Part shown: piece after piece, positions 3,427 through 25,041 of the stretch
How positions within the stretch are numbered: position 1 is the stretch's first letter
Layout: the number at the start of each line of letters is the position of its first letter
Source: a virus
Strand: one strand, 5' to 3'
Virus record (IMG/VR): IMGVR_UViG_3300045926_000283
Coordinates: 6,497-70,496 of that record
DNA length: 64,000 nt
Program-made: the position numbers and the translations under genes
Notes under the pieces: generated by a model
Seen by the model: only the letters and a program-made list of their open reading frames with translations
Told to the model about the DNA's origin: nothing
The model's database searches: none

Positions 3427-4170
3427 ATGCCCAGGACCGCGACACTGACCGATCAACTCTGTGAAGAGATTCAACGGCTCTGCGATCTGCGCGGCCTCAC
3501 GCAGCGCGACGTCGCCGAGCATCTCGACATCTCGCAGGCGTACGTCAGCCTCACCTTCCGCGGCGCGCGGCGAAAGAACTACTTCGAGGCGTGGGTGCGG
3601 CTGGCGCGGCTGGTCGGCTACCGCTTCAGCGCGCTCGTCCGGCTGGCGGAGCAGCAGCTGGCGCGTGAGGACAAGGCGCGGCGGAAGCGAGCGCGGGCGC
3701 GCACGGCGGTCCACCACGCGGCCGGCAGTGGCAAGGAGGAGACGGCGGGCGCACCGGTCGCGGCGGTCGCACGTACCGCTGAGGTCGCGCACCCCCGACG
3801 TAAAAAGATACAGGGGGGTCAGAAATCTGTTGCACCGTCGACGCCTGAACGTGTATCGTCCTCGACGCCGTTATCACACAGCGTTATAACCCAGGCGTCG
3901 TCGTCGGCGCGTTCCCAGGAGTCGATCGATGGCCAAGCCGCGTCCCGCTCCGGCGTTCCCTCGTCCACAGATGCTGCGCGTCGTGACTACCAGCGACGTC
4001 AGCGAGAAGCCGCCGCCGTCCTCGCAGCTGGCCTCCCCGGAGCCGCTGCTGCCGTGGGCCGAGTACGTGGGGCAAGCGGTCGGCCTGTCGCAAAAGCTCC
4101 TGGATCCAAAGCGCCCGTTCGAGCTGGAGCTGGTCGCGTGGCTGTGGCGCGCACTCGTCGTCGCGCTTGA
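3427..4170 (+). CDS. CI-like XRE HTH repressor with low-complexity C-terminus
   Basis: MPRTATL...RGLTQRDVAEHLDISQAYVSLTFRG; start chosen at ATG 3427. Confidence 0.7.
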   Translation: MPRTATLTDQLCEEIQRLCDLRGLTQRDVAEHLDISQAYVSLTFRGARRKNYFEAWVRLARLVGYRFSALVRLAEQQLAREDKARRKRARARTAVHHAAGSGKEETAGAPVAAVARTAEVAHPRRKKIQGGQKSVAPSTPERVSSSTPLSHSVITQASSSARSQESIDGQAASRSGVPSSTDAARRDYQRRQREAAAVLAAGLPGAAAAVGRVRGASGRPVAKAPGSKAPVRAGAGRVAVARTRRRA

Positions 4171-4285
4171 GTTCCTCCATCGGCATCACAGCCGCGCCGA
4201 GCAGCGGTACCTCCGACAGCTGATTCGGAAAGCCCTGTCGGGGACGGGGAAACTCGTCCTCAGCTGCCTGCTCGTCGCTAGTTGA
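3929..4285 (+). CDS. hypothetical protein
   Basis: GGAG RBS, typical codon usage; overlaps the repressor ORF tail. Confidence 0.55.
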   Translation: MAKPRPAPAFPRPQMLRVVTTSDVSEKPPPSSQLASPEPLLPWAEYVGQAVGLSQKLLDPKRPFELELVAWLWRALVVALEFLHRHHSRAEQRYLRQLIRKALSGTGKLVLSCLLVAS

Positions 4286-8581: not shown

Positions 8582-8917
8582 TCAGGGCTCGTCGACGATC
8601 TCGCCGTCCTTGACCGCGACCTCGGCTTGCTGAGCCTCGGCGAGGCGGTCGTAGATCCGGCGGACTTCGGGGTACTTCAGCGGCGCGTGCCGGACGAAGT
8701 GCTCGTAGTTCAGGATCGGGATGAACTGCCACCACTCGCGCACGGTCGAGGAGCGCGGCGGGGGTGTAGTCCGGTAGCGTTCGAGGTAGGCCTCGATCGC
8801 ATCGAGGACGGCACACGCCTCGCGCGCGCTCAGCGCCAGGTGGAGGGTCGGGGGCTCGGGGGGATCGATCGGGACGTTGGTGCGTCCGTAGATCTCTTCC
8901 GGGGTTCTTGGGGCCAT
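8582..8917 (-). CDS. hypothetical protein
   Basis: ORF after a long (GA)n leader. Confidence 0.7.
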   Translation of the reverse strand: MAPRTPEEIYGRTNVPIDPPEPPTLHLALSAREACAVLDAIEAYLERYRTTPPPRSSTVREWWQFIPILNYEHFVRHAPLKYPEVRRIYDRLAEAQQAEVAVKDGEIVDEP

Positions 8918-8965
8918 CGGTCTCTCCTCTCTCTCTCTCTCTCTCGCTCTCGCTCTCGCTCTCTT

Positions 8966-9181
8966 CTACGGCAGCCGGCCCATGATCGTGAAGCCCTGCC
9001 AGAACAGCCCGCTGACCAGCACGATCAACGCCGCCAGCATCCACCGCAGCAGCCGCAGCTCGCCGCGGATGTCGGCGAGCGCGCGGTCGTAGCCGGCGAC
9101 TTCCTCCGCCGCGATGCGGGCCTTGTCGGCGTTGCCGGGGTCGAGCAGCGCGTCGTGCAACGCGCCTAATCGCAAACTCAT
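8966..9181 (-). CDS. small coiled-coil protein with C-terminal TM helix
   Basis: ...IRGELRLLRWMLAALIVLVSGLFW. Confidence 0.7.
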   Translation of the reverse strand: MSLRLGALHDALLDPGNADKARIAAEEVAGYDRALADIRGELRLLRWMLAALIVLVSGLFWQGFTIMGRLP

Positions 9182-9247
9182 AGTGTTCTCGCTCGCTCCT
9201 CTCGTGCTGCCGGCCAGCGACGACCGGCAGCACTCTCTGTGATAAGT

Positions 9248-9454
9248 CTACGCCTTCTTCTTGGTGACGTCGGTCGTCGGCTCGATGCGAAGGATCGGGG
9301 TGTGCTGCAGCAGCGTCGGCACGCCGTTCGCCCACTTCGCTCTGTGCTTGTAGACCGAGTCCCAGTTCGCTTCGATGGCGCGCACCGCCAGCTCGGGGCT
9401 GTGGGTGTCGACCTCGACCTCGAACTGCGCCTCGATCGTGACGATGACTCTCAT
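9248..9454 (-). CDS. hypothetical protein
   Basis: MRVIVTIEAQ; GAGGAGG RBS. Confidence 0.6.
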   Translation of the reverse strand: MRVIVTIEAQFEVEVDTHSPELAVRAIEANWDSVYKHRAKWANGVPTLLQHTPILRIEPTTDVTKKKA

Positions 9455-9690
9455 CGTGCCTCCTCTCGCTCGACCGTCGCCCCCTGCCGGCGCAGGATCG
9501 CCGTGCCGCAGTCCTCGCAGTACCCGAACCACGGCCCGGGCGTCGGCTCGGTCTGTCCGTCCTTCACATCGCCGAGCGTGCGGGTGTCGACCACCCGCAC
9601 GCGCATCGTTGCGTGTTTCCGACAGCGGGTGAAGCGCCCGCCGTGGATCTCCCGCTTCTCACACTCGCAGATACTGCCCGGGCGCATCAT
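9451..9690 (-). CDS. Cys-rich hypothetical protein
   Basis: CEC..C..CEDC; coupled overlaps. Confidence 0.6.
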   Translation of the reverse strand: MMRPGSICECEKREIHGGRFTRCRKHATMRVRVVDTRTLGDVKDGQTEPTPGPWFGYCEDCGTAILRRQGATVEREEAR

Positions 9691-9893
9691 CGCCGCACCC
9701 ACAGCTTCCCGACGACTTCGGCGTCGTCGTTCTCTTCCACGATGTCGTAGGTCTCGCTGAGGAACTGTTCATAGTCCCCGTCGTCGAGCGCCTTGTCCGC
9801 CAGCTCCTTCAGCCGTGTGATCGCGCCCTTGCAGGCGTCGTAGAACCGGATCTCGTTGTCGAAGCTCGGCTCGAACTGCAGGGTGATCTTCAT
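9687..9893 (-). CDS. hypothetical protein
   Basis: 68 aa acidic ORF, ATGA overlaps. Confidence 0.65.
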   Translation of the reverse strand: MKITLQFEPSFDNEIRFYDACKGAITRLKELADKALDDGDYEQFLSETYDIVEENDDAEVVGKLWVRR

Positions 9894-10276
9894 CGCTCAC
9901 CTGCCTTCTTCAGGAAGGCCGGCTCGATCCCCTTCGCCTTCCTGGTCGCCGCCGCCTTGTTGGCGCCGCGCTTCCGGTTCACCGTCGCCGCCCCGTCTCG
10001 ATGCCGGGCCAGGACGCTGGTCACATCCGGCGGCAGCACGATCCGGTCGCCGCCCGTGGCGTCGTTCTTCTGCAGGAAGACCGTGTCGGACCCGTCGGCC
10101 CGCACGGTCTTGATCACCCAGGTGACGCTGTTACCGTAGGTGTCGATCAGCTCGACGATCGACTGCTTGGTCACCGCCGCCGGGTTGTTGCTGCACTTCC
10201 TCAGCGCGACGCTGTACTCGTCGCGCGGCAGGCTCGTGGTCAGGTCGGTGTCGACCCCCACGTTCTTCACGCTCAT
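9890..10276 (-). CDS. hypothetical protein
   Basis: MSVKNVGVDT; polypurine RBS. Confidence 0.7.
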   Translation of the reverse strand: MSVKNVGVDTDLTTSLPRDEYSVALRKCSNNPAAVTKQSIVELIDTYGNSVTWVIKTVRADGSDTVFLQKNDATGGDRIVLPPDVTSVLARHRDGAATVNRKRGANKAAATRKAKGIEPAFLKKAGER

Positions 10277-10301
10277 CGCTCTCGCTCCTCTCTGCTCGTT
10301 A

Positions 10302-10517
10302 TCACTCGAACTCGACATCCTGCCGCACCATCACCGACGTCGTTCCGTCGCCCGGTCCGAACAGGTACGTGTCGTCGGCCGGGATCGGCTTCGCATAGCG
10401 GCGATTGCCGACGTACCGCTCGGCGGCGGCCAGCGCCGCTTCGCGGGTGGGGTACTGCTTCTCCGTGTTGCTGTTCAGGAAGTAGCAGGTATAGGTCTCC
10501 AGGCGCTTGACGGCCAT
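10302..10517 (-). CDS. hypothetical protein
   Basis: MAVKRLETY; TGATG coupling. Confidence 0.6.
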   Translation of the reverse strand: MAVKRLETYTCYFLNSNTEKQYPTREAALAAAERYVGNRRYAKPIPADDTYLFGPGDGTTSVMVRQDVEFE

Positions 10518-10765
10518 CAGACCACGCCCCGGATCCGCGCCTCGATCAGCCGCAGCTGCGTCAGCATCTCGCGCAGCCGCTGCTCGCCCTGCTTCCTCGG
10601 CAGCCAGTCGCCGCCGCGCTCGCGGTTCACCGCGAGATCGACCGCGTTCTGCTGATACGCGCGGAACTGCCGCACGTACTTCGCGCACGCCTTCGCCAGC
10701 AGCTCCAGCTCGTCGTACTTGTCGAGATGCGGCTCGTCTCGCCGCACCTCCTGCGTTCTGCTCAC
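10517..10765 (-). CDS. hypothetical protein
   Basis: GTG start after structured element and RBS. Confidence 0.65.
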   Translation of the reverse strand: MSRTQEVRRDEPHLDKYDELELLAKACAKYVRQFRAYQQNAVDLAVNRERGGDWLPRKQGEQRLREMLTQLRLIEARIRGVV

Positions 10766-10781
10766 TCGCTCCTCTCCTCTC

Positions 10782-10840
10782 GGAGTCGGTCATCGACTCC
10801 GCACGCGGTCCGAACCTCGGCTCGGACCGCGCACGCAACC
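10782..10840 (-). repeat. Structured intergenic element, copy A
   Basis: GGTTGCG..GCGGTCCGAGC-CGAG-GTTCGGACCGC..GCGGAGTC..GACTCC then RBS. Confidence 0.75.
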
Positions 10841-10842
10841 GA

Positions 10843-11073
10843 TCACCCCTGCTCGCTTGTTAGCTCCTTCGTCACGTCGAACTGCAGCACGACCTCGGTC
10901 TCGGAGTCGTGCTCAACCCACCTCCTCACGGCCGGGTAGCGCAGATCGTGGCTGGTCATCCCCTCGACCTCGGCCTCGGCTAGCTGCTCGGCCGCTTCCA
11001 TCGTCTCCGCCTCGTAGACCTTGACGAACGTCGTCGTCGTGATCCGGTGCGCCAGTACTTCAAACCTCGCCAT
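10843..11073 (-). CDS. hypothetical protein
   Basis: 76 aa ORF, polypurine RBS. Confidence 0.7.
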   Translation of the reverse strand: MARFEVLAHRITTTTFVKVYEAETMEAAEQLAEAEVEGMTSHDLRYPAVRRWVEHDSETEVVLQFDVTKELTSEQG

Positions 11074-11097
11074 TGCTCGTGCTCCTCTCTCTCTCCC

Positions 11098-11364
11098 TCA
11101 GACTGCCCTGAGGATCTCGACGTCCCGCCAGCGCACCCCACCCGGCTGCCCGTACACCGCCTCCCCGACCTTCAGCCTGAGCAGCTGCCGGCCGGTCTCG
11201 TCCCGTAGCTCCGCGCTCGCCACCGTGGCGTGGACGTGCTCGGTGCCTTCGAGGATGTCCCACATCCTCGCCTGCTTCGCCAGCCGCGCGTGATAGGCGA
11301 CGTGGACCGGGCCGACGTAGACCTTCACGCGGTACAGCTTCGTCACCGCTCGCTCACTCATCAC
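11098..11364 (-). CDS. hypothetical protein
   Basis: 88 aa ORF, polypurine RBS. Confidence 0.65.
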   Translation of the reverse strand: MMSERAVTKLYRVKVYVGPVHVAYHARLAKQARMWDILEGTEHVHATVASAELRDETGRQLLRLKVGEAVYGQPGGVRWRDVEILRAV

Positions 11365-11381
11365 TCACTCCCCTCTCTCGC

Positions 11382-11591
11382 TCAGTAGTTCATCGAGTAG
11401 TCGAAGTCGCCGCCCTCCGCCCATCGCCGCTCCAGCCGCTTCTGGCACTTCACGCAGATCGAGCTGGTCGCCTTCAAGGGCAGCCGCTTGCCGCACTCCA
11501 CACACGTCCACCGTTCCCGCCCTCGGCTGTCGAGCGTCGGGCAGTCGCCTGCCTGATGCCCGCAGCAGGGGAAGTCTTCACACCTCGCCAT
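11382..11591 (-). CDS. Cys-rich small protein
   Basis: MARCEDFPCCGH...CVEC...CVKC. Confidence 0.7.
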   Translation of the reverse strand: MARCEDFPCCGHQAGDCPTLDSRGRERWTCVECGKRLPLKATSSICVKCQKRLERRWAEGGDFDYSMNY

Positions 11592-11626
11592 CACGCACGC
11601 TCCTCTCTCGCTCTCTGCTCTCGCTC

Positions 11627-11854
11627 TCAGACCAGCTTCTCGTTGTAGGCCGGCGTCACATGCCCGGCGAGGATGACCACGATGGACCACGCCCGCGCGT
11701 GCCCGTTCTCGTCGTTCTCCTCCTCGGGCGTCAGCTCGAAGTCGCGGGCGTCTCGGCCCTCGAACGGCTTCACGAAGATCTCGCCGACCGCACTCGGATG
11801 ATCGAGGTACAACCCGATCAGCGTGTACGGCTTCCGCTCCTGCTGCTCACTCAT
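11627..11854 (-). CDS. hypothetical protein
   Basis: GGGAGGAGAGCG leader. Confidence 0.65.
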   Translation of the reverse strand: MSEQQERKPYTLIGLYLDHPSAVGEIFVKPFEGRDARDFELTPEEENDENGHARAWSIVVILAGHVTPAYNEKLV

Positions 11855-11866
11855 CGCTCTCCTCCC

Positions 11867-12328
11867 TTACCTGACACTCGGCGGAACATAGATGCCCCGC
11901 ACCCGCCCGTTGTTCGCGTCCTCGTGGCTCGTCCCCCGCGGCACCAGCCGCAGCACGGCGCCCCGCGGGTCGCCGTTGAACGCCGGCTGCAGCTCGGTCT
12001 TGGCGAGCAGCTGCTCGACCTTCGACTCCGCGTAGCAGCTCGGGCAGCGCCGCTCCCGCTTCCGCCTGACGCCCTTGCCGTCGGCGTACGGCACTTCCTC
12101 GACCACCACCGGGCGGAAGCTCGCCGGCACGTAGCCGCTCTGGCACTTCGGGCAGTAGTCGACTTTGCGCTCGCCGTTATCCGCCGGCCAGTCGCCGTTG
12201 CACTCGGCCACCGCGAGCCGCTGCAGCGTCGTCGCGTAGCGCAGCAGCTTGCGGCTGGTCTCGATGTCCAATCCCGCCTTGGTCGCGGCGACGATGAACT
12301 CGTCGCGCTCCCGTGTGTAACTCATCAT
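11867..12328 (-). CDS. hypothetical protein with Zn-ribbon insert
   Basis: LQRLAVAECNG..CPKC..CPSC..GDPRG. Confidence 0.75.
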   Translation of the reverse strand: MMSYTRERDEFIVAATKAGLDIETSRKLLRYATTLQRLAVAECNGDWPADNGERKVDYCPKCQSGYVPASFRPVVVEEVPYADGKGVRRKRERRCPSCYAESKVEQLLAKTELQPAFNGDPRGAVLRLVPRGTSHEDANNGRVRGIYVPPSVR

Positions 12329-12386
12329 CGCTCTCTCCTCTCACGCTCTCTGTCTGACTGTTGTATCACGCTGGGTTATCGGTCGT

Positions 12387-13043
12387 TCACGCGGTCTTAC
12401 GCAGCCAGATCACGTTGGCTGGCTTGAGCGGGCTGCTCCCGTGGTAGACCAGCCCGATCCGTCCCTTGCCCTGCTGCGCCGGCTTGTCGTTCTTGTTGCC
12501 GTCGATGTACTTCGCTCGGCGCCGGTCGGCGTGACTGGCGAAGATGCGCGAGTGCGGCTTGCTGTGGTCGATCTGGTGATCGAGCTTGCCGCCAACGCTC
12601 TGGATCACCGTGAAGTGCGCCGGCTTCCTGCTCCAGTCGAGATGCAGGCTCTTGGTGTAGCAGTACCACGCGCGATCCGGGAATCGCGCGATGATCCTGA
12701 ACCAGCAGTCGAGATACGCCTGGCTGAAGAAGTCGCCGCTGTCGTGCAGCCGGATACTGCGCTGCTTGATCCGGTGGGTGAGGTCGTCGATCGCCAGCTC
12801 CTCGAAGCGGGCGAGGTCGGTTCGCGCTACGGCCAGATTCGCCTCTCGTGTCCGTCTTGCGTCGGGCATGAGAAAGCGACCCTGCCTCGCGTAGCACAGG
12901 GTCGCGCAGCCACCGGCCTGCGGACAGACAGCAAAGCCGTCCGCAGACCGGAACGCCGGGAGGTTGAAGCTGACAGTGCGCGTCTTACGGAGCTTGCGGT
13001 TGTTGACCGACCAGTAGAGCCGCTCCGCTCGACGCCTGCTCAC
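12387..13043 (-). CDS. GP88-family (radical-SAM-like) protein
   Basis: N.KL, F.LPA, CP....C...CYA, RLHDSGDF, YTK motifs; GTG start. Confidence 0.75.
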   Translation of the reverse strand: MSRRRAERLYWSVNNRKLRKTRTVSFNLPAFRSADGFAVCPQAGGCATLCYARQGRFLMPDARRTREANLAVARTDLARFEELAIDDLTHRIKQRSIRLHDSGDFFSQAYLDCWFRIIARFPDRAWYCYTKSLHLDWSRKPAHFTVIQSVGGKLDHQIDHSKPHSRIFASHADRRRAKYIDGNKNDKPAQQGKGRIGLVYHGSSPLKPANVIWLRKTA

Positions 13044-13477
13044 TCCGCCGCCTTGGCGACGAGGCGAGGCTCGATCTCGCAGCCGAACAGCATCGCGTAG
13101 CGGTCGGTCTTGTCGGGCGGCGACACCACGCCGCCCGCCGCGCTGATCGTGCGCCGCCGCGCGATCCGCTCCCTGGTCTGCCGCTTCCACCACTCCGGCG
13201 GCTGCCGCAGACTGAGGTACACGCCCAGCCACCCGTGCTCGATGAAGTAGCCCTTCACCGTGGCCGGGCCGAGGTTGTTCATGTAGGCAGTGACCTTCGT
13301 CCCCACCGTGGGCGGCGCCTGCTCGCCGCTCCACAGCGCGACCTCGTCGCTGTAGTTCTCGATGATCGGATCGCCGTGCTGATCCTTCACCGAGGTGCTG
13401 TAGACGGGGCGCTGCCACGCGGGCCGCGTCGTCTGCAGCTCGTACCGGGTCACACCCGGTTTCCTCTGCTCACTCAT
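13040..13477 (-). CDS. hypothetical protein
   Basis: MSEQRKPG start after (GA)n leader. Confidence 0.7.
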   Translation of the reverse strand: MSEQRKPGVTRYELQTTRPAWQRPVYSTSVKDQHGDPIIENYSDEVALWSGEQAPPTVGTKVTAYMNNLGPATVKGYFIEHGWLGVYLSLRQPPEWWKRQTRERIARRRTISAAGGVVSPPDKTDRYAMLFGCEIEPRLVAKAAE

Positions 13478-13498
13478 GGACTCACTCTCTCTCTCTCT

Positions 13499-13572
13499 GG
13501 AGTCGCTCTCTCGTGCGCTCCGCTGGGCGAGGCTCGACCCACTGCGGTCGAGCCCCGCACGCAGCACACGAG
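13499..13572 (-). repeat. Structured intergenic element, copy B (divergent)
   Basis: GTGCTGCG..GGGCTCGACC/GGTCGAGCCT..GCGGAGCGCAC..GACTCC then RBS. Confidence 0.6.
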
Positions 13573-13584
13573 CTACTTGCTCTC

Positions 13585-13785
13585 TCAGCTCGCCGTGTTC
13601 AGCCGCTCGCACAGCTCGTCCACCTCGCCGAAGTCCAGCGGCGCGTCGTCCTCGAAGTGGCCGAGGAACCGCTCCGGGATCTCGCCCGTGCCCTCCTCCA
13701 GCACTTCCTCCTGCCAGAACCTGAGCGCCACCAGGACCGTCGCCAGCTCACGGTCGGTCAATCGTCCTGCCACTCGTTTGCCCAT
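13585..13785 (-). CDS. hypothetical protein
   Basis: LTDRELATVLVALRFWQ...EVDELCERLN. Confidence 0.7.
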   Translation of the reverse strand: MGKRVAGRLTDRELATVLVALRFWQEEVLEEGTGEIPERFLGHFEDDAPLDFGEVDELCERLNTAS

Positions 13786-13806
13786 CGCTCTCTCCTCTCT
13801 GCTCTC

Positions 13807-14232
13807 TCAGCCGTAGATCAGCGTGCCGAACACGGTCAGCTGCAGCACCACGTCAGCGGTCTCCGCGTCGTCGTTCTCCTGCAGGAAGTTGGCGAGGTGG
13901 CTCATCGCGCCCGGGAAGGGCATCGGCTTGCCGCCGCCGTTGTCGGGCATCATCCCGGACACCGCGCACGCGCCCAGCCGCTCCAGCCCCTTCGCCAGAT
14001 CCTCGGCGGCGATCATTCGCCGCACCCTCGGCCCGTCGTCGTGCGATTCGTGCTCGACGACCTCGACGCCCAGGTAGTCGAGATTGACCGCCTGATGGAC
14101 CTTGCGGAAGCCCGCCCAGTAATTGGACCCGCCCTCGACCGCACTGCACAGCAGGTCTCTCAACCGCTGCACGTCGATGTCGATGGGGACGACGATCCGC
14201 ACCCGCTCCTCCTTCACGCTCTCGTCACTCAT
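13807..14232 (-). CDS. phage hypothetical protein
   Basis: A.EGGSNYW...DAETADVVLQ..VFG.LIYG. Confidence 0.75.
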   Translation of the reverse strand: MSDESVKEERVRIVVPIDIDVQRLRDLLCSAVEGGSNYWAGFRKVHQAVNLDYLGVEVVEHESHDDGPRVRRMIAAEDLAKGLERLGACAVSGMMPDNGGGKPMPFPGAMSHLANFLQENDDAETADVVLQLTVFGTLIYG

Positions 14233-14248
14233 GGTTCTCTCTCCCTCT

Positions 14249-14314
14249 GGAATCGACTCACCGACTCCGCACGACGGCTGGAACCTCGTTCGGCTCCAGC
14301 CGTGCCGCGCAATC
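14249..14314 (-). repeat. Structured intergenic element, copy C
   Basis: GATTGCG..ACGGCTGGAGC/GTTCCAGCCGT..GCGGAGTC..GATTCC then RBS. Confidence 0.75.
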
Positions 14315-14333
14315 GTCGAATCGCTCACCCGCC

Positions 14334-14549
14334 TTAGTCCTCGTCGGTCAACCACTCCCCGCACTCGTCGCACTGGTAGTAGCAGTCGAAGTCCTGGTAC
14401 GGCGGATGCTCGGCGTCGTAGGCGAAGCAGTTGCCTCGCCCGTCCGGCCCGTCGCCCATCGCCCCGTACTTCTCCTCGGCCTCGTCCTCGGTGGGACGAC
14501 AGCCGACGCAGAAGTCGTACGGGTCATTCGCGCTCGTGTAGATCCGCAT
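14334..14549 (-). CDS. Cys-containing acidic small protein
   Basis: DFCVGC...CDECG. Confidence 0.7.
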   Translation of the reverse strand: MRIYTSANDPYDFCVGCRPTEDEAEEKYGAMGDGPDGRGNCFAYDAEHPPYQDFDCYYQCDECGEWLTDED

Positions 14550-14570
14550 CGCTCTCCTCGCTCTCTTTCC

Positions 14571-14768
14571 TCACTGCTCCTCGAACTCCGCCTTCTTGCT
14601 CAGGAAGCCCGGATCGTGCGTGGCGTTCCACGCCTTGCAGATTGCCCGCGCCTCCTCGATGGTCTTGACGTTCTTGCGGATCGTCCGCCGCTTCCCTGCG
14701 CCGGGCTCGCGTCCGCCCGGCCATGCCGGGTTGGCGATCCACCACGTCCTCGTGAACACTCGGTACAT
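14571..14768 (-). CDS. hypothetical protein
   Basis: MYRVFTRTWW...EEARAIC..WN. Confidence 0.7.
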   Translation of the reverse strand: MYRVFTRTWWIANPAWPGGREPGAGKRRTIRKNVKTIEEARAICKAWNATHDPGFLSKKAEFEEQ

Positions 14769-14790
14769 CACTCGCTCCTCTCTCGCTCTC

Positions 14791-15069
14791 TCAGCCTTTC
14801 GTCTCATCGAACGGCTGCCCGACATAGGTCTCGCAGCACTCCCGCGAGCAGAACAGTCTCCCGCCCGCAATCGGCCCGCTCTGCCTCTTCCCTTGGTCAT
14901 CATCGACGTGGAAGCGGTACAGCCAGTGGCCTGTCACCTGCCCGCCTCGCCGCCGCTCTCTCCGTCCGCCGCACCAGTCGCACGTCGAGATCGTGACTCG
15001 CACGACCTCCGCCATGATGCTGTGGCGGGCGAAGCTGTTGCGTACTACGCTCCTCCTCCTCTCGCTCAT
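14791..15069 (-). CDS. Zn-finger small protein
   Basis: CDWCG...FCSREC. Confidence 0.7.
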   Translation of the reverse strand: MSERRRSVVRNSFARHSIMAEVVRVTISTCDWCGGRRERRRGGQVTGHWLYRFHVDDDQGKRQSGPIAGGRLFCSRECCETYVGQPFDETKG

Positions 15070-15083
15070 CTCGCTCTCCCTCT

Positions 15084-15138
15084 GGAGTCAGTGACTCCGC
15101 GAGGGGCTGGAACCTCGGCTCCAGCCCTCCCCGCAGTC
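15084..15138 (-). repeat. Structured intergenic element, copy D
   Basis: GACTGCG..GGGCTGGAGC-CGAG-GTTCCAGCCC..CGCGGAGTC-ACT-GACTCC then RBS. Confidence 0.75.
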
Positions 15139-15143
15139 GCCGA

Positions 15144-15374
15144 CTACTCAGGGTCGAGCTGCGACCCGTACGCCCAGTGCCCGTTGTTCAGGCCCACCGT
15201 GCAGTAATCGGCTCGCACTCTCGCCCACGGCAGCTCCTGCACCTCACGGCCATACTTCTCGTGCGGCCGGTCGGTCTCATCGATGCTCGTGACCACGGCC
15301 AACCGCGCTGGCTGGCTGCCCCACGCGCCGCGCCACCTCACGCGGTCGCCCACTCGCAACATCTGCTCTCCCAT
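15144..15374 (-). CDS. SH3-like small protein
   Basis: LRVGDRVRWRG.WG...NGHWAYG.Q. Confidence 0.7.
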   Translation of the reverse strand: MGEQMLRVGDRVRWRGAWGSQPARLAVVTSIDETDRPHEKYGREVQELPWARVRADYCTVGLNNGHWAYGSQLDPE

Positions 15375-15395
15375 CGCTCTCTCCTCTCGCTGCTC

Positions 15396-15890
15396 TCAGC
15401 ACGCCTCCATCCACTCCGTCACATCCAGCCCGCACGGCAGCTCATCGCGCCTCGCGGCGAACACGCTCACGTGCTCGCCGTAGTGCTGGCCGTACCGCTG
15501 GATGATCCGCACCCGCTCCGCCACGCTCTCTCGCTCCCAGCACTCGCCCGCCGCGACGTCGATCCGCTGGCTGTAGTCGTCCTCGTCGAGGATTGGGTAC
15601 TCGCTCAGGCTGCCCTCGATCTCCTCCGCCTCGCGGTACTTGTCCTCGTCCTTCGGGTCGACGAGGATCAGCTCGAACCAGCCGCAGGCCCAGTGCCCGA
15701 AGCGATGCACCTGCACGCTGTCGCTCTCGCCGCCGAGCTGCGCCAGCGCGACGGCGAAGTTGGACTGCGTCAGGTAGTCGCTGTCCCGCGTCTGCGAGTA
15801 CAGCACCTCGAAGTCGCTGATCCCGTGCCGCTCGCCGCCGAGGCCCGCCGGGTCGAACCCGGTCGGGCGGAACTCCCTGTACCTCTCCAT
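15396..15890 (-). CDS. phage hypothetical protein
   Basis: RDS..L..SNF...HWACGWFE...YPILDEDD. Confidence 0.75.
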   Translation of the reverse strand: MERYREFRPTGFDPAGLGGERHGISDFEVLYSQTRDSDYLTQSNFAVALAQLGGESDSVQVHRFGHWACGWFELILVDPKDEDKYREAEEIEGSLSEYPILDEDDYSQRIDVAAGECWERESVAERVRIIQRYGQHYGEHVSVFAARRDELPCGLDVTEWMEAC

Positions 15891-15912
15891 CGCTCTCTCC
15901 CCTCTCGCTCTG

Positions 15913-16170
15913 CTACTCCGTCACCCGATCCCAGCTCCGCCACTCCGGCGCGTGAACCGTCCACGTCGTCCGTCGCTGGCCCTCCAGCGGAATCCCCAGC
16001 GTGTCCCACGTCGGGACCTCGCCCTTGTGCTCCTTGCAGTAGCGGCACGAGCAGCCGCCGTCGATCACCCGGCGCAGCTCGTAGGGGATCCGCACGTAGA
16101 CCGATCCGCGCCATACCCGGAGCACGTCCCAGCCTTGCAGGCTGATATTACACTCCGTCATATCCTCCAT
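15913..16170 (-). CDS. hypothetical protein
   Basis: CSCRYC; polypurine RBS. Confidence 0.65.
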   Translation of the reverse strand: MEDMTECNISLQGWDVLRVWRGSVYVRIPYELRRVIDGGCSCRYCKEHKGEVPTWDTLGIPLEGQRRTTWTVHAPEWRSWDRVTE

Positions 16171-16184
16171 CGCTCTCTCCCTCT

Positions 16185-16240
16185 GGAGTCGAAGACTCCG
16201 CGAAGGGCCTGAACCCTCGGCTCAGGCCCAACGCGCAATC
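16185..16240 (-). repeat. Structured intergenic element, copy E
   Basis: GATTGCG..GGGCCTGAGC-CGAGG-GTTCAGGCCC..CGCGGAGTC-TTC-GACTCC then RBS. Confidence 0.75.
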
Positions 16241-16259
16241 TCATCGACCCTGCTCTCGC

Positions 16260-16811
16260 CTACGGCCGTCTCACTTCCTGATCGTCCTCGACCTGCCACA
16301 CCCGGTACGGCGCTTTCTCCTCCTCGAACCAGTCATGGCCCAGGCAGTAGGTCTTCACCCCGCCCGCCTCGAACGCGTCCAGATCCCCCGCGCCCGGGCA
16401 GCACGGCGAGCAGAACCGCGCCGTGGTGTAGTACGGCGAGCGGATCACGTAGATCCCGAGGCTGCTCGTCTCCAGCACGTACCCCTCCGCCTCGTAGCGG
16501 TAGGTGTCCTCGCTCTCCTCGTAGCGGTCGTTGAAGCGATCCTCGACGTCGCCCCAGATGCCGCTGACGTGCTCCTCGACCTGTGCCGCGTCGGCAATGT
16601 CGAAGTCGTCGACCAGCACTCGGCTGAGCGCCAGCCGGATCTGGTCCTTGACCGCGTCGACCGCTGCCGCGTGCGTCAGGTTCTCGCCGCTCGTCCAGAT
16701 GTCCTGCGTGGCCTCTGGGTTCGGCGTGTGCGGGCTGATCACCCCGTACCGGATCCCGGTCGCGTGATCCACGTTGGCCAATCCCCGCCCATAGTCAATC
16801 CCTGCACTCAT
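16260..16811 (-). CDS. phage hypothetical protein
   Basis: GIDYG.G.AN.D..TGIRYGVI...CSPC.PGAGDL. Confidence 0.75.
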   Translation of the reverse strand: MSAGIDYGRGLANVDHATGIRYGVISPHTPNPEATQDIWTSGENLTHAAAVDAVKDQIRLALSRVLVDDFDIADAAQVEEHVSGIWGDVEDRFNDRYEESEDTYRYEAEGYVLETSSLGIYVIRSPYYTTARFCSPCCPGAGDLDAFEAGGVKTYCLGHDWFEEEKAPYRVWQVEDDQEVRRP

Positions 16812-16937
16812 CGCTCTCTCCTCTCGGGCCCGGATCGTCCTTCATCCGTCCCCCACAGGGCTCACGCGACCCACGCTGAGCCCTCTAGGCGACAGACCGG
16901 GCAGAGTCTCGCCCTGCCCGGACCAGATCGCTCCTTG

Positions 16938-17183
16938 CTAGGCCGCCTTGGTCTTCAGCTCCGCGTCGTTGGCCTTGATGAAGGCCTTGACCTGCTCGGC
17001 CATCGCCAACAGCTTCTCCCACTGCTCCCGGTACAGCGTGACCGGGAATCTGCCCAACCCATAGACGCTCAGTCCGCCCTTGGGGCTGACCTTGAGCGTG
17101 ACCTTGGGCGTGCGCGCGGCCTTCAGCCTCGCGTTCTCTGCGATCAGCCGTGCGATCTCCGCTTGCATCTGTTCGTTGCTCAT
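16938..17183 (-). CDS. small coiled-coil protein, first gene of the early array
   Basis: LKVSPKGGLSVYGLGRFPVTLYREQW; AGAGGAG RBS. Confidence 0.8.
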   Translation of the reverse strand: MSNEQMQAEIARLIAENARLKAARTPKVTLKVSPKGGLSVYGLGRFPVTLYREQWEKLLAMAEQVKAFIKANDAELKTKAA

Positions 17184-17196
17184 CTCTGCACTCCTC

Positions 17197-17741
17197 TGGG
17201 CTTCGATGGAAGCCCTAATGCCGTCTGGGCTATGAACCAGACTGCCGCATTTCAGGCGAGCTTCCCATGTAGGGTTCCCCTCGCCTGTCACCTGCGTCCG
17301 CGCGCGTACACAGCTCGCGCTGTGGGTGATACGCTCGCGGTGTGAGCGGTGCCTACTCCGGTGCCTGTGGGGGACTCAGGGTCGCGTGGTCGCCCGCGAC
17401 GGAAGGCTTTAAGACTCACTGGGCGTTTAGCGTGTGAGCGATCAGCGCCGTCGTAGGCTCGCCTGTCCTACCCGTTCTGCCGGTCTGGTCGTACTCCGGC
17501 TCCCCTGCCCGCCTTGGGTGTGGCCGTCGGCAAGGGCGTTTCGGCTATGGCTGCCTGCCTGTAGTCTCAGTGTCGGACGGCTACTGACTCCCCGGAATGG
17601 CTTCGTCGGGGCGGAGCGTTCGTCGTCCGGCATGCCTTGGGGCAGACCGCGTTTGTCAGAGAACTCGAACCCACCGCGTCCCGCAGGCGACCAAGGGCCC
17701 TGTCGGGGCACCGGCGAACCGGTGCGGAGCGGCGTGCTGCC
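17197..17741 (-). ncRNA. Putative long structured leader RNA
   Basis: No credible ORF; many hairpins including GCACCGG-UUCG-CCGGTGC; begins right after the sigma54-type promoter. Confidence 0.5.
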
Positions 17742-17749
17742 TGCCAAAT

Positions 17750-17767
17750 TTGCAGGCACCGTGCCAA
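17750..17767 (-). promoter_or_regulatory. sigma54 (-24/-12) promoter
   Basis: Minus strand TTGGCACGGTGCCTGCAA matches TGGCAC-N5-(T/C)TGCA with correct GG/GC spacing. Confidence 0.65.
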
Positions 17768-18124
17768 ACGCAAAAACGGCCGGTTTTCGGCACCTTGCGC
17801 CGTTTGTTCGCCTTGAAAATCTGCCGGTTTCGGTAGAAAAAACCGACTTTTGTCTGCCTGCAGGCAGATTGCACAGAATTGCACGGACGTCGTCCCGCTA
17901 ACTCCTTCGCTATCAACGAGTTCCGAGGACTGGTTCCGATAATCTAGGTTATGTTAACTAGCTCGGCTGTAGTGGTCCTGTAGGCCGTAGGACCAGGGCA
18001 TTGTCCGGGGGGTAGGCCCGCGCGACCTAAGGACATGTCCGGGACTCAGCACAATTTTTCTCACAAATTTGTCGCGCAATTTTTCGGCGCGCGAGCGATT
18101 ACTCTCTGTGATAGCCTCCCCCGC

Positions 18125-18337
18125 ATGAGCGAACAGATCGTCCGCACGCTGCAGAACGAGATCATCGACCTCGACGATCGCCTCAGTCGCCTCGCCGAGC
18201 GGGTGCGGACGGTCAACGAGCGGCTGCAGATCGACCCGGGCGGCAGCGATCGCCTCGATGCGATCGACGAAGCGCTCGTGCAGCTCGCGGCGCGCGTCGC
18301 CGCGCTCGAACGCGAGGTCGCCAGCCATGAGCGGTGA
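18125..18337 (+). CDS. coiled-coil hypothetical protein
   Basis: MSEQIVRTLQNEI; typical codon usage. Confidence 0.6.
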   Translation: MSEQIVRTLQNEIIDLDDRLSRLAERVRTVNERLQIDPGGSDRLDAIDEALVQLAARVAALEREVASHER

Positions 18338-18956
18338 TGGCGATCCGTTCGATCACAACGCGGAGTGTCGCTTCTGCGACGAGCAGGCGGGCCACCGCGC
18401 CGACTGCCCCTGGCTGCTGGCGCTGCAGCAGTGTGTGCAGGCGAAAGACGAGGAGCTGGTCAAGGCCAACGAGAAGGTCGAGGAGGCGCGTGAGGCGGCG
18501 CGCAGCTACGCGGCCGAAGTGGTCGAGTACGAGCAGTCCTTCGAGCGGTACCACAAGGCGTCGATGGCCCTGATGGACGCCTACAAGCGTGCCCACCCGG
18601 ACGTGCCGAAGGACGTCTGGCCCGACGTCGGTGTCGTCAACGCCTGGGCCGTCGATCAGATCGAGAAGCACCTGACCTACCTCGAAGCCGAGCAGATGAA
18701 GCACGAAGTCGGGGCGCTGCAGGCGTGGAAGGACGCCGTCATCGACGCCCTGGTGGTCGACTGCATCTACACCAATGAGCATGAGACCGACCCGCGCCAA
18801 GCGATTGCCGACCTGTGTGCGTGGGAGGTGAAGATCGCGCTCGACCCGGCGGTCAGCGAGCCGGTCGCGAAGCTGCATCAGCGCATCGCCGAGCTGGAAA
18901 ACGCGCTTGCCGCTGTCGAACGAGCCCTGCGCGACGAGCAAGAGCACCCGCGATAA
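18327..18956 (+). CDS. hypothetical protein
   Basis: CRFC..H..DCPW plus coiled coil. Confidence 0.65.
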   Translation: MSGDGDPFDHNAECRFCDEQAGHRADCPWLLALQQCVQAKDEELVKANEKVEEAREAARSYAAEVVEYEQSFERYHKASMALMDAYKRAHPDVPKDVWPDVGVVNAWAVDQIEKHLTYLEAEQMKHEVGALQAWKDAVIDALVVDCIYTNEHETDPRQAIADLCAWEVKIALDPAVSEPVAKLHQRIAELENALAAVERALRDEQEHPR

Positions 18957-24801: not shown

Positions 24802-25041
24802 GTGCAGTACCAGGACGCGCTCAATCGCGTCCTTGCCGCCTCTCGCGACGAGCCGCACCGCCTGGGCGCCGCCGACGAGCCATGTCCCTGCTGGCGCTGC
24901 GTCGCGCACCGCCTCGTCCTCGACATCGCCAACAGCAAAGAAGGCGAGAACGCGGAGTTCCGCGTCCACCTCGCCGCCACCCGCCGCCGCGCCCGTAAGA
25001 AGGCTGAAGCCGATCTTCATCTGAGGACACGCCGTGGCTGA
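24802..25041 (+). CDS. hypothetical protein
   Basis: CPCWRC; overlaps the portal start. Confidence 0.5.
   Translation: MQYQDALNRVLAASRDEPHRLGAADEPCPCWRCVAHRLVLDIANSKEGENAEFRVHLAATRRRARKKAEADLHLRTRRG

Follow-up and report, generated by a model that had tools for sequence, protein, structure and literature searches.

A small family of co-varying RNA hairpins between genes of an uncultivated soil phage, probably controlling how a long messenger is cut and translated

Five hairpin elements occupy the wide gaps of a leftward operon

The window analyzed, a 64,000-nucleotide stretch of an uncultivated soil phage, carries a leftward operon of small genes (Table 1) that is presumed, from its position alone, to be early. 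Comparison of the operon proteins with Pfam and PHROG gave mostly no matches, and the nearest isolated phages show only 23 to 37% identity and have unrelated hosts, so that no host could be assigned in this way. A sequence-only reading of the window had claimed five intergenic copies of a structured RNA element. A whole-genome regular-expression search and a scan with covariance model R2 recovered all five where that reading had placed them, and no sixth sense copy in the whole 70,496-bp genome. Every copy lies on the minus strand, which is the coding strand, with a stop codon on its upstream side and the following Shine-Dalgarno (SD) sequence and start on its downstream side. The elements occupy the only wide gaps of the operon, the remaining junctions measuring about 20 nt, and are placed after groups of 1 to 7 genes. 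The SD context GAGAGGAGAGAGCG-AUG recurs at most operon starts, and AGAGGGAGAG follows every copy.

The consensus proposed for the element, YTGCG-stem-GAGC-CGAG-GTTC-stem'-GCGGAGTC-Nx-GAYTCC-SD, holds. The four variable-stem pairs quoted with it were correct as given, the G.U pair in GAGC/GUUC is genuine, and copy B indeed lacks the loop consensus, having GACC-GCAGUG-GGUC instead, together with a variant of the repeat pair, GGAGCGC...GCGACTCC. The pattern GGAGTC-N2-12-GAYTCC occurs at four sites, giving seven strand matches versus 0.51 expected (0 of 100 shuffles reached seven), with a spacing between GGAGTC and GAYTCC that varies from copy to copy (3, 3, 7, and 8 nt). The loop 12-mer alone, allowing up to two mismatches, gave 20 matches versus 14.05 expected and showed no enrichment.

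Table 1. Coordinates of the operon, the element copies, and their alternative hairpins (HP2) in the window
Feature	Position	Strand	Description
Operon with elements	8582..17183	-	Leftward; ~23 small, mostly orphan genes
Copy A	10766..10850	-	Core hairpin 10793-10842; 26 bp including 5 G.U
Copy A HP2	10782-10800	-	Alternative hairpin, GGAGUC-N7-GACUCC
Copy A flanks	10845-10843 (stop); 10765 (start)		Stop UGA adjoins P1 5' strand; downstream start GUG
Copy B (divergent)	13478..13584	-	Core 13514-13568; 26 bp; loop GCAGUG
Copy B P1			10 bp, CUCGUGUGCU/AGCGCACGAG; downstream start AUG at 13477
Copy B variant HP2	13500-13522	-	GGAGCGC-N8-GCGACUCC
Copy C	14233..14333	-	Core 14261-14316; 30 bp; 6-nt loop GAACGA; start AUG at 14232
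Copy C HP2	14249-14268	-	GGAGUC-N8-GAUUCC, one G.U
Copy D	15070..15146	-	Core 15091-15140; 24 bp; HP2 15084-15098; start AUG at 15069
Copy D upstream stop	15146-15144		UAG, adjoins helix
Copy E	16171..16259	-	Core 16192-16242; 27 bp; HP2 16185-16199; start AUG at 16170

One related phage carries homologous copies

Covariance model R1, built from copies A, D, and E only, recovered both held-out copies, with C at 50.7 bits (E 6.8e-11) and B at 29.5 bits (E 1.8e-5); its next match at a different site reached 18.6 bits (E 0.011). R1 also gave antisense echoes of copies D and E (40.7 and 25.6 bits). As had been proposed, the element belongs to no Rfam family: no Rfam 15 match in the 64-kb window reached its gathering threshold, and an Rfam E-value scan of positions 10500 to 17300 left the elements without a match. 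A Twister-P5 match (26.9 bits, E 0.018, 17225-17296, minus strand) was absent from three further searches and was set aside as noise. A search of the literature found no description of the motif.

Of the ten related phage records searched, one (G004) carries homologous copies, two in number (F1 and F2). In G004 the conserved 3' GGAG is the SD itself, buried in the basal helix, whereas in this phage (G000) an additional GAYUCC partner comes after GGAG(UC), with a new, exposed SD behind it. In the predicted folds of the two G004 copies (-48.1 and -45.5 kcal/mol; z scores of -6.4 and -6.2), the basal helix takes up both SD and spacer, and SD accessibility is 0.20 and 0.28. Apart from this motif, the early regions of the two phages have nothing in common. 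None of the seven G004 early proteins matches G000, and the best blastn-short E value was 0.028.

R1 and R2 found no match in 27 further loci or in records G001 to G003 and G005 to G010, and the relatives of the early proteins are distant and without the element. In IMG/VR, the exact patterns of the loop plus GCGGAGTC and of GCGGAGTC..GAYTCCRGAG gave 3 and 20 matches, respectively, all by chance, and among the 49 loci with a G004-type pattern R2 scored only G004 itself. A 22-bit match at locus L186 turned out to be a low-complexity stretch and not an element. Metagenome contigs yielded at least 120 loci; among those listed, 1 of 120 has a stem of at least 4 bp and none is element-like. For genome contigs, a first query gave no match, and the single match to the element pattern, in a Myxococcaceae MAG, arose by chance.

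The elements are long, irregular, co-varying helices of the coding strand

Each of the seven copies, those of G004 included, is an irregular hairpin of 24 to 30 bp, and the geometry is constant. From base to tip, it consists of P1, an invariant G.G mismatch with U-A and C-G as neighbors, P2, and an imperfection, above which a stem that is free to vary but co-varies carries the conserved GAGC/GUUC top. In every copy the imperfection lies 11 to 16 bp, and the G.G mismatch 16 to 19 bp, below the loop, and the 5' arm between the two conserved patches, as read by hand from the alignment, has a constant length of 15 to 17 nt.

The element had been assigned to the coding strand, in agreement with its folding. 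The sense folds reach -43.6 to -56.9 kcal/mol (z -4.0 to -5.8; none of 200 shuffles of each copy was as stable) versus -33.1 to -47.8 kcal/mol for the antisense folds of the five copies, so that sense is better than antisense by 9 to 18 kcal/mol. Over the seven copies, the 190 helix bp include 26 G.U pairs versus one C.A 1x1 mismatch. The stems also co-vary, as the sequence-only reading had noted. In alignment A6, which comprises the five copies of this phage and the two of G004, 88.1% of cells are paired versus 72.8 ± 2.4% in shuffles (0 of 500 reached 88.1%), both sides are changed in 12 of 18 pairs versus 5.1 in shuffles, and the covariation score is 0.492 versus 0.205 in shuffles and at most 0.156 in slid controls. 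These statistics indicate that the structure is under selection.

Hairpins of such stability, located just past stop codons, could be plain structural RNAs, acting as U-less terminators or attenuators or as exonuclease barriers that stabilize the upstream segments, with no specific recognition, and other, unrelated hairpins do precede SDs in the same operon (9204-9233 and 16812-16937). Ingham et al. 1995 reportedly described U-less terminators of phiC31. The sequence 3' of each helix is, however, purine-rich without a U-tract, and a terminator scan of positions 9000 to 18500 listed seven terminator-like sites, none of them at an element; in the high-GC case that has been studied, mycobacterial RNA polymerase requires a U-tract (PMC3993855). 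A purely structural role would also leave the motif conservation and the retained HP2 alternative unexplained. We regard it as very unlikely.

The two conserved patches could instead be an operator for a sequence-specific RNA-binding protein of phage or host, either a translational repressor or an antiterminator loading at a nut/boxB-like site, which would recognize two features set a fixed distance apart, the GAGC/GUUC top and the G.G motif. This would account for patches that are conserved across two phages with otherwise unrelated early genes and joined by an arm of constant 15 to 17 nt, while the stem between them varies freely. Against an operator speak the loop, whose sequence differs in B, C, F1, and F2 and is not conserved, a strain variant with a 3-nt loop insertion in copy D, and a number of sites, five to seven per operon, unlike that of nut; in addition, no candidate protein specific to the two carrier phages was found. 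A small basic protein that seemed restricted to G000 and G004, and thus a possible trans-factor, has homologues in the element-less G002 and G003 as well. We consider an operator quite improbable.

The strand asymmetry bears on a role of the elements as DNA, whether as an attC-like folded-ssDNA site, a PeSL-like module-shuffling joint, or a palindromic protein-binding site or promoter. Such a role would fit a motif that alone is common to the early regions of G000 and G004 and is surrounded by orphan genes, as T4 PeSLs are (PMC4122927). The excess of G.U pairs over C.A mismatches speaks against a duplex-DNA palindrome, however, and the variable spacing between GGAGTC and GAYTCC is unlike that of a dimer operator. 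A promoter scan of positions 9000 to 18500 found no sigma-70-like site, no attC core GTTRRRY lies at the element ends, and the integrase matches generic recombinase models only (27.6 bits versus a cutoff of 220). Among the relatives, no gene swaps are bounded by the element. A role as DNA is the least probable of the readings weighed here.

Two alternative pairings are predicted to leave the SD of this phage open

It had been proposed that GGAGUC has two mutually exclusive partners, and both pairings exist; copy B retains both with different letters, that is, through compensatory changes. The extended helix is predicted to beat the HP2 alternative by 0.6 to 7.3 kcal/mol. Folded alone, the 3' fragments (MFE, -9.6 to -19.9 kcal/mol) adopt HP2 in four of the five copies (A, B, C, and D), whereas that of copy E takes another fold. 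The further proposal of a translational switch that hides the SD was not borne out: predicted SD accessibility at the five element junctions (0.32 to 0.89; mean, 0.67) is like that at 18 element-free junctions (0.18 to 0.93; mean, 0.61), and it is the extended helix that wins. When SD sequestration by an operator was tested, the SD was paired in the dominant fold only in the G004 copies and not in those of the window; for this phage, prediction leaves the real SD open in either state. Overall, a repeated, structured, co-varying element of the coding strand, outside any Rfam family and with two alternative pairings, is what stands of the sequence-only reading. The SD-hiding switch is not supported as proposed, the attC-like option lacks the defining features of attC sites, and the PeSL-like option lacks a promoter.

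The paired states could also serve as a translational coupling gate that works without cleavage. A ribosome terminating on the upstream gene would unwind the 5' strand of the basal helix, which would uncover the SD of G004 directly; here, it would free AGUC to capture GAYUCC, the CUCC of which otherwise pairs weakly with the GGAG of the SD. The resulting relay, 1:2/3:4 versus 2:3, resembles ermC-type attenuation. In line with coupling, helix and upstream stop are 0 to 1 nt apart in copies A, D, F1, and F2; when the footprint of a ribosome at that stop is masked, the predicted accessibility of the SD increases from 0.60 to 0.98 in A, from 0.32 to 0.63 in D, and from 0.20 to 0.52 in F1; the consensus fold by RNAalifold includes the CUCC:GGAG hairpin; and copy B keeps both pairings. 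In B, C, and E, however, the helix begins 9 to 12 nt past the stop and the mask is without effect (0.72 to 0.70, 0.67 to 0.67, and 0.79 to 0.74, respectively), F2 is unresponsive (0.28 to 0.31), and SD accessibility is equal at element junctions and at the 18 others. Moreover, the 3:4 helix measures just 4 bp, and such a device would require neither the conserved top nor the constant arm. We hold coupling without cleavage to be rather unlikely.

RNase III-type processing as the tentatively preferred reading

Taken together, the elements make up a small RNA family not described before, the probable function of which is to control the cutting and translation of a long messenger. Among the options of the sequence-only reading, namely, a protein-bound translational switch, RNase III-type processing sites, and folded-ssDNA recombination sites, the second appears to fit the anatomy best. 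We tentatively favor, as a possible explanation, that the elements are RNase III-type processing sites that also gate the next ribosome-binding site (RBS).

According to this model, the elements would act as RNA within the sense transcript of the leftward polycistronic operon, which we presume to be a single RNA. A cut in the helix would split this long mRNA into modules, and the RNA upstream of the cut would keep a hairpin cap at its 3' end. The same cut would take away the 5' strand of P1, and the AGUC thus freed could pair with the downstream GAYUCC, so that a hairpin would form at the new 5' end of the downstream mRNA, or close to it, right before the polypurine SD. In G004, cleavage would expose the SD itself, located in the basal helix. 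The structure, strand, covariation, and positions of the elements and their homology to the G004 copies rest on the analyses above; the cleavage, the enzyme, the refolding, and any consequence for mRNA stability or translation we infer. In all seven copies, the 24 to 30 bp of the helix exceed the about 20 bp of near-continuous dsRNA expected of a T7- or SP82-type signal and reach the approximately two helical turns (22 bp) of an idealized RNase III substrate. There is precedent in a Gram-positive host, where the early mRNA of phage SP82 is reportedly an RNase III target (PMC4838370) and an RBS-like sequence of SP82 stabilizes mRNA (PMC7509114).

RNA evidence came from contigs assembled from two RNA libraries (soil metatranscriptomes). 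Counting against cleavage, contigs cross copy B (13290-13655) and copy D (15029-15240) unbroken at a depth of 2.6 to 5 and represent either uncut molecules or library DNA carry-over. Such contigs give neither strand nor ends. Parts of the region are without RNA-library cover, and a library joint, 12009>15573, rests on a 21-letter side.

To our knowledge, bacterial RNase III has no need of motifs like GAGC/GUUC or the G.G mismatch, and their conservation across two phages is therefore not explained by this enzyme. Also counting against RNase III, a cut above P1 in G004 would leave an 11- to 13-bp duplex still covering the SD.

Possible significance of the elements

Phage early operons rich in orphan genes are mostly annotated as bare strings of ORFs, and how expression is apportioned within them is known for few model phages only. 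The RNA motif described here, compact and co-varying, comes from soil phages that have not been cultivated, and its seven examples fall into two designs, one with the SD inside the helix and one with the SD outside and a refolding partner, which offer a natural experiment on the evolution of an RBS gate or processing site. A broader reading, which we find doubtful, is that of a portable post-transcriptional cassette, a self-contained four-segment RNA relay. Being all that two otherwise unrelated early regions have in common, it would travel from one gene junction to another and label the sites of exchange of orphan modules. Its input would be a ribosome terminating on any upstream gene or a cut of the helix, and its output the translation and stability of any downstream gene. 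Confirmation of either processing or coupling would make the element a small part, independent of its context, with which polycistronic expression could be tuned in high-GC hosts, and a new Rfam family useful for viral-metagenome annotation.

Comparison with known systems

The elements share with integron attC sites a structure kept above sequence, a variable length, a location between promoterless genes, and one strand that folds better. Unlike attC sites, they have no R/L core boxes (RYYYAAC...GTTRRRY) at their ends, are not accompanied by an integron integrase (the phage integrase remaining far below the cutoff of NF040815), and do not follow every gene. PeSLs of T4-type phages are likewise repeated composite intergenic cassettes that end in an SD and start and lie in plastic, ORFan-rich regions, but their stems are short terminators and a sigma-70-like -35/-10 lies between stem-loop and SD (PMC4122927), whereas the helices here have 24 to 30 bp and 0 promoter-like sites were found in 9000-18500.

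SAS/ESAS motifs of Cluster K mycobacteriophages are also repeated just upstream of the starts of a subset of nonstructural genes, in wider-than-usual junctions and with an upstream inverted repeat of variable spacer (PMC3203893). The 13-bp SAS, GGGATAGGAGCCC, has no match here at up to two mismatches. The 17-bp inverted-repeat arms of ESAS keep their sequence, and departures from it neither compensate nor speak for RNA pairing, so that the authors favor DNA-binding sites (PMC3203893). The arms of our elements, in contrast, vary and compensate, both sides being changed in 12 of 18 pairs.

RBS-sequestering leader hairpins that are opened by RNase III or by ribosomes are represented by the lambda N leader and by ermC-type attenuation. 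The G004 copies, which bury the SD, and the four segments of this phage, which can pair 1:2/3:4 or 2:3, are similar in design, but there is no leader peptide here, so that the upstream gene would have to take that role, and both states of this phage are predicted to have an open SD. In the early operon of Bacillus phage SP82, RNase III sites reportedly precede a tract that is rich in purines and resembles an SD, as the elements here precede AGAGGGAGAG, a likeness by description and not by sequence comparison. This polypurine, RBS-like 5' tract of SP82 reportedly stabilizes the downstream RNA after early-operon processing.

Unlike the signals of the T7 early region, with which they have no sequence similarity, the elements conserve both a G.G mismatch and the GAGC/GUUC top and can form HP2 as an alternative second hairpin; they have no Rfam match, and cleavage is putative here. 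As in T7, however, several irregular hairpins of about two turns lie between the cistrons of one early polycistronic mRNA (a presumed one here), with imperfections near mid-helix, and the five early signals of T7 (PMC3867540) compare with five copies here.

Genomic setting and occurrence of the element

The source record, of which the window is bases 6497 to 70496, is a single contig of 70,496 bp (67.7% G+C), rated 100% complete as a virus, and it encodes a tyrosine integrase and a fusion of a UDG domain with a family-A DNA polymerase. Its DNA is present in soil metagenomes. Megablast returned no close isolated phage, and the closest protein matches to isolated phages were 23 to 37% identical, with hosts unrelated to one another. 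About 23 small genes, most of them without a Pfam or PHROG family, run leftward and are tightly packed: their junctions measure about 20 nt, and a purine-rich Shine-Dalgarno (SD) context recurs. A noncoding region of about 930 nt separates this operon from the structural genes; from this layout only, in which operon and structural genes diverge, we infer that it is the early region.

The sequence-only reading had described five copies of a hairpin element at 10782, 13499, 14249, 15084 and 16185, and all five (copies A to E) were located there on the coding strand. The gaps that they fill, each between a stop codon and the next SD, are among the few wide ones. Scanning the complete genome by regex and by covariance model returned these five sense copies and no sixth. 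The pair GGAGTC-N-GAYTCC occurred at 4 sites against 0.51 expected, a count that none of 100 shuffles matched, and copy B carries a variant of it. Sense RNA folds of the copies reached -43.6 to -56.9 kcal/mol (z -4.0 to -5.8), with antisense folds weaker by 9 to 18 kcal/mol. Since covariance model R1 was trained on copies A, D and E, its matches to copy C (50.7 bits, E 6.8e-11) and copy B (29.5 bits, E 1.8e-5) are independent; the next best site, besides antisense echoes of D and E, scored 18.6 bits and has a different fold. A plain barrier or terminator role for these hairpins is very unlikely, since they lack a U-tract.

Features of the phage window, with two loci outside it
Position	Strand	Feature	Observation
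~17183 to ~8582	-	Leftward operon	
9204-9233	-	Hairpin	13-bp stem directly before the SD of gene 8966-9181; strong, outside the family
12387-13043	-	GP88-family protein	PF17338, E 2.5e-32; homologues chiefly in Mycobacterium phages, also Streptomyces and Synechococcus phages; GTG start overlaps upstream TGA stop (GTGA)
after 15117	+	CTC insertion	In copy D loop of a related strain (soil DNA run X8)
16812-16937	-	Two hairpins	Strong, non-family; before the SD of gene 16260-16811, same operon
17200-18130		Noncoding stretch	Lower GC, between divergent leftward operon and rightward genes; recurring A/T-rich words (AAATTG/CAAATTTG-like, GCAATTCTGTGCAATCTGCC), several hairpins; candidate control region, origin or noncoding RNA
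17225-17296	-	Sub-threshold Rfam match to the Twister-P5 ribozyme	26.9 bits vs gathering 37.6, E 0.018; not reproduced in further searches; probably noise
17360-17508, 17544-17699		Matches to RNA-library contigs	Inside the noncoding stretch
25034-27184		Portal-like protein	
58042-61032	-	996-aa protein	N-terminal uracil-DNA-glycosylase-superfamily domain and family-A DNA polymerase domain; ~60% identity in G001-G003
Genome 4011-4259 (L251:112-360), outside window	-	Cold-shock-domain protein	PF00313, E 1.6e-10; homologues in G001, G002, G004; an RNA chaperone could be relevant to a genome with such stable mRNA hairpins
L054:11560-11720 (relative G004)		Region upstream of early operon	Three 30-nt tandem repeats (11571-11660) and sigma-70-like TTGACA-N17-TAGTAT; resembles an operator/promoter region; a scan of 9000-18500 in this phage gave no equivalent consensus promoter

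Anatomy of the element

Every copy has as its MFE fold a single long, irregular hairpin of 24 to 30 bp. Its basal helix, P1, consists of GAYU:AGUC and 3 to 9 additional pairs that are different in each copy; above it lie an invariant 1x1 G.G mismatch between a U-A and a C-G pair, and P2 (CG:CG with 0 to 2 further pairs). An imperfection follows (A has tandem G.U, B a CCA bulge, C and E a 2x2 loop each, and D bulges), then a variable stem whose letters differ among copies with pairing kept, a conserved GAGC/GUUC top with a G.U pair (GACC/GGUC in copy B) and an apical loop of 3 to 6 nt. The 5' arm, counted from the G.G mismatch through the last base of GAGC, is 17 nt long in C and 16 nt in the other four copies. 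With the insertion of the X8 strain, the apical loop of copy D grows from 4 to 7 nt, and GAGC/GUUC is unchanged. Binding of a dedicated RNA-binding protein would account for the conserved patches, but the search for a protein specific to the carriers gave none, and we regard this reading as improbable.

Recurrence and covariation in a relative

The early region is hypervariable, with 1 of 23 early proteins having a homologue in four relatives. Neither R1 nor a second covariance model, R2, found the element in the portal loci of 27 IMG/VR contigs whose portal is 67 to 81% identical to that of this phage, or in nine of ten longer relative records searched whole (G001 to G003 and G005 to G010). 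In the tenth, G004 (52,090 bp; portal 69% identical), a separate hairpin scan found two copies, F1 and F2, at the first two junctions of the early operon. Like the window copies, they carry the basal motif 5' YUU-G-CR ... YG-G-AGG 3', G.G mismatch included, the covarying stem and the GAGC/GUUC top with its G.U; their arm is 15 nt. Over 104 kb of DNA from relatives, the best-scoring site of R1, which was built without either G004 copy, was one of these two (16.1 bits, E 0.075). The sequence-only motif TGCR-N9-12-GAGC-N4-12-GTTC-N9-13-YGGAG, composed after the copies were known and thus partly circular as a test, matched 4 sites in this genome, 2 in G004 and none in G001 to G003 (203 kb) or the 27 portal loci (346 kb), and arose in 3 of 300 Markov simulations of G004. 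None of the 7 G004 early proteins matched this genome, and blastn-short between the two early regions gave no match; the element is the only feature common to them.

The proposed covariation was borne out by the seven-sequence alignment, in which 88.1% of cells were paired (72.8 ± 2.4 in shuffles), 12 of 18 pairs showed changes on both sides (5.1 in shuffles) and the covariation score was 0.492 (0.205 in shuffles); none of 500 shuffles reached any of these values, and slid-register controls gave at most 0.156. The helices of the seven copies hold 26 G.U pairs in 190 bp and only one C.A apposition, the asymmetry to be expected if selection acts on this strand as RNA and not on duplex DNA. Roles at the DNA level, which we consider the least probable of the readings, are disfavored by this strand asymmetry, by the variable spacing and by the lack of a promoter, attC boxes and an integron integrase; the modular conservation pattern leaves room for PeSL-like recombination as a side effect only.

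Predicted accessibility of the Shine-Dalgarno sequence

The conserved 3' GGAGG of the G004 copies serves as the SD of the following gene, 8 to 10 nt ahead of AUG; in the predicted fold, a 5' strand starting 0 to 1 nt past the upstream stop codon pairs with both this SD and its spacer, and predicted SD accessibility is 0.20 and 0.28. The homologous GGAG(UC) of this phage does not serve as the SD and is followed by 3 to 8 nt, GAYUCC, a new SD (AGAGGGAGAG) and the start codon. GGAGUC does have the two partners proposed for it, upstream GAYU (P1) or downstream GAYUCC (alternative hairpin HP2). Copy B retains both pairings in other letters (AGCGC with GUGCU upstream or GCG.A.CU downstream), which is one independent compensatory event in favor of both states.

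The extended helix was favored by 0.6 (A), 3.9 (B), 4.8 (C), 5.2 (D) and 7.3 (E) kcal/mol. Predicted SD accessibility in copies A to E was 0.44 to 0.85 with P1 forced and 0.79 to 1.0 with HP2 forced, the SD of this phage thus being exposed in both modeled states. In a longer context, the five element junctions (0.32 to 0.89, mean 0.67) were no different from 18 element-free junctions (0.18 to 0.93, mean 0.61). A simple SD-hiding switch is therefore unsupported in this phage. A simulated ribosome on the upstream stop codon opened the SD of A, D and F1 and had no such effect in B, C, E and F2. Ribosome-driven translational coupling agrees well with G004, A and D and poorly with B, C and E, and we judge it rather unlikely.

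Possible cleavage and refolding

Four features have to be explained, namely, a helix of about 2.5 turns, a fixed geometry in which an imperfection lies halfway up, the two conserved patches and the maintenance of a second partner for the 3' strand. A double-strand-specific cut accounts for most of them, and we tentatively favor RNase III-type processing. Such a cut in the helix would remove the 5' strand, and the freed 3' strand would refold into HP2, placing a hairpin at or near the new 5' end, ahead of the polypurine SD; in G004, the same cut would help to free the buried SD. The isolated 3' fragments adopt HP2 in four copies, A to D (fragment MFE -9.6 to -19.9 kcal/mol); that of copy E has a different MFE fold. 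Two soil metatranscriptome runs contain parts of the region, with contigs matching exactly inside several operon genes and two contigs crossing copies B and D unbroken; these contigs carry no strand, ends or levels and could include DNA carry-over, and at most they indicate that uncut molecules may exist.

Comparison with known systems

As had been anticipated, the Rfam search gave no match to the elements, and we found no description of the motif in the literature searched. We class them as an undescribed structured intercistronic RNA family with a function that we infer, comprising so far seven members in 2 of the 11 clade records searched whole (this genome and ten relatives). The closest positional analogues are the SAS/ESAS of Cluster K mycobacteriophages, whose motif was absent from this phage in a motif search; according to PMC3203893, the ESAS inverted repeats are without compensation, and the authors therefore favor DNA sites. 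T4 PeSLs share the cassette position with the element but contain promoters (PMC4122927), which the elements of this phage lack.

For the proposed function, the closest analogues are the early processing signals of T7 and SP82. The early mRNA of phage SP82 has sites with an RBS-like stabilizer, which the logic proposed here matches. In T7, one early precursor carries five RNase III signals, with single-strand cuts at loops or mismatches and stabilizing 3' hairpins (PMC3867540), and the logic proposed here is the same.
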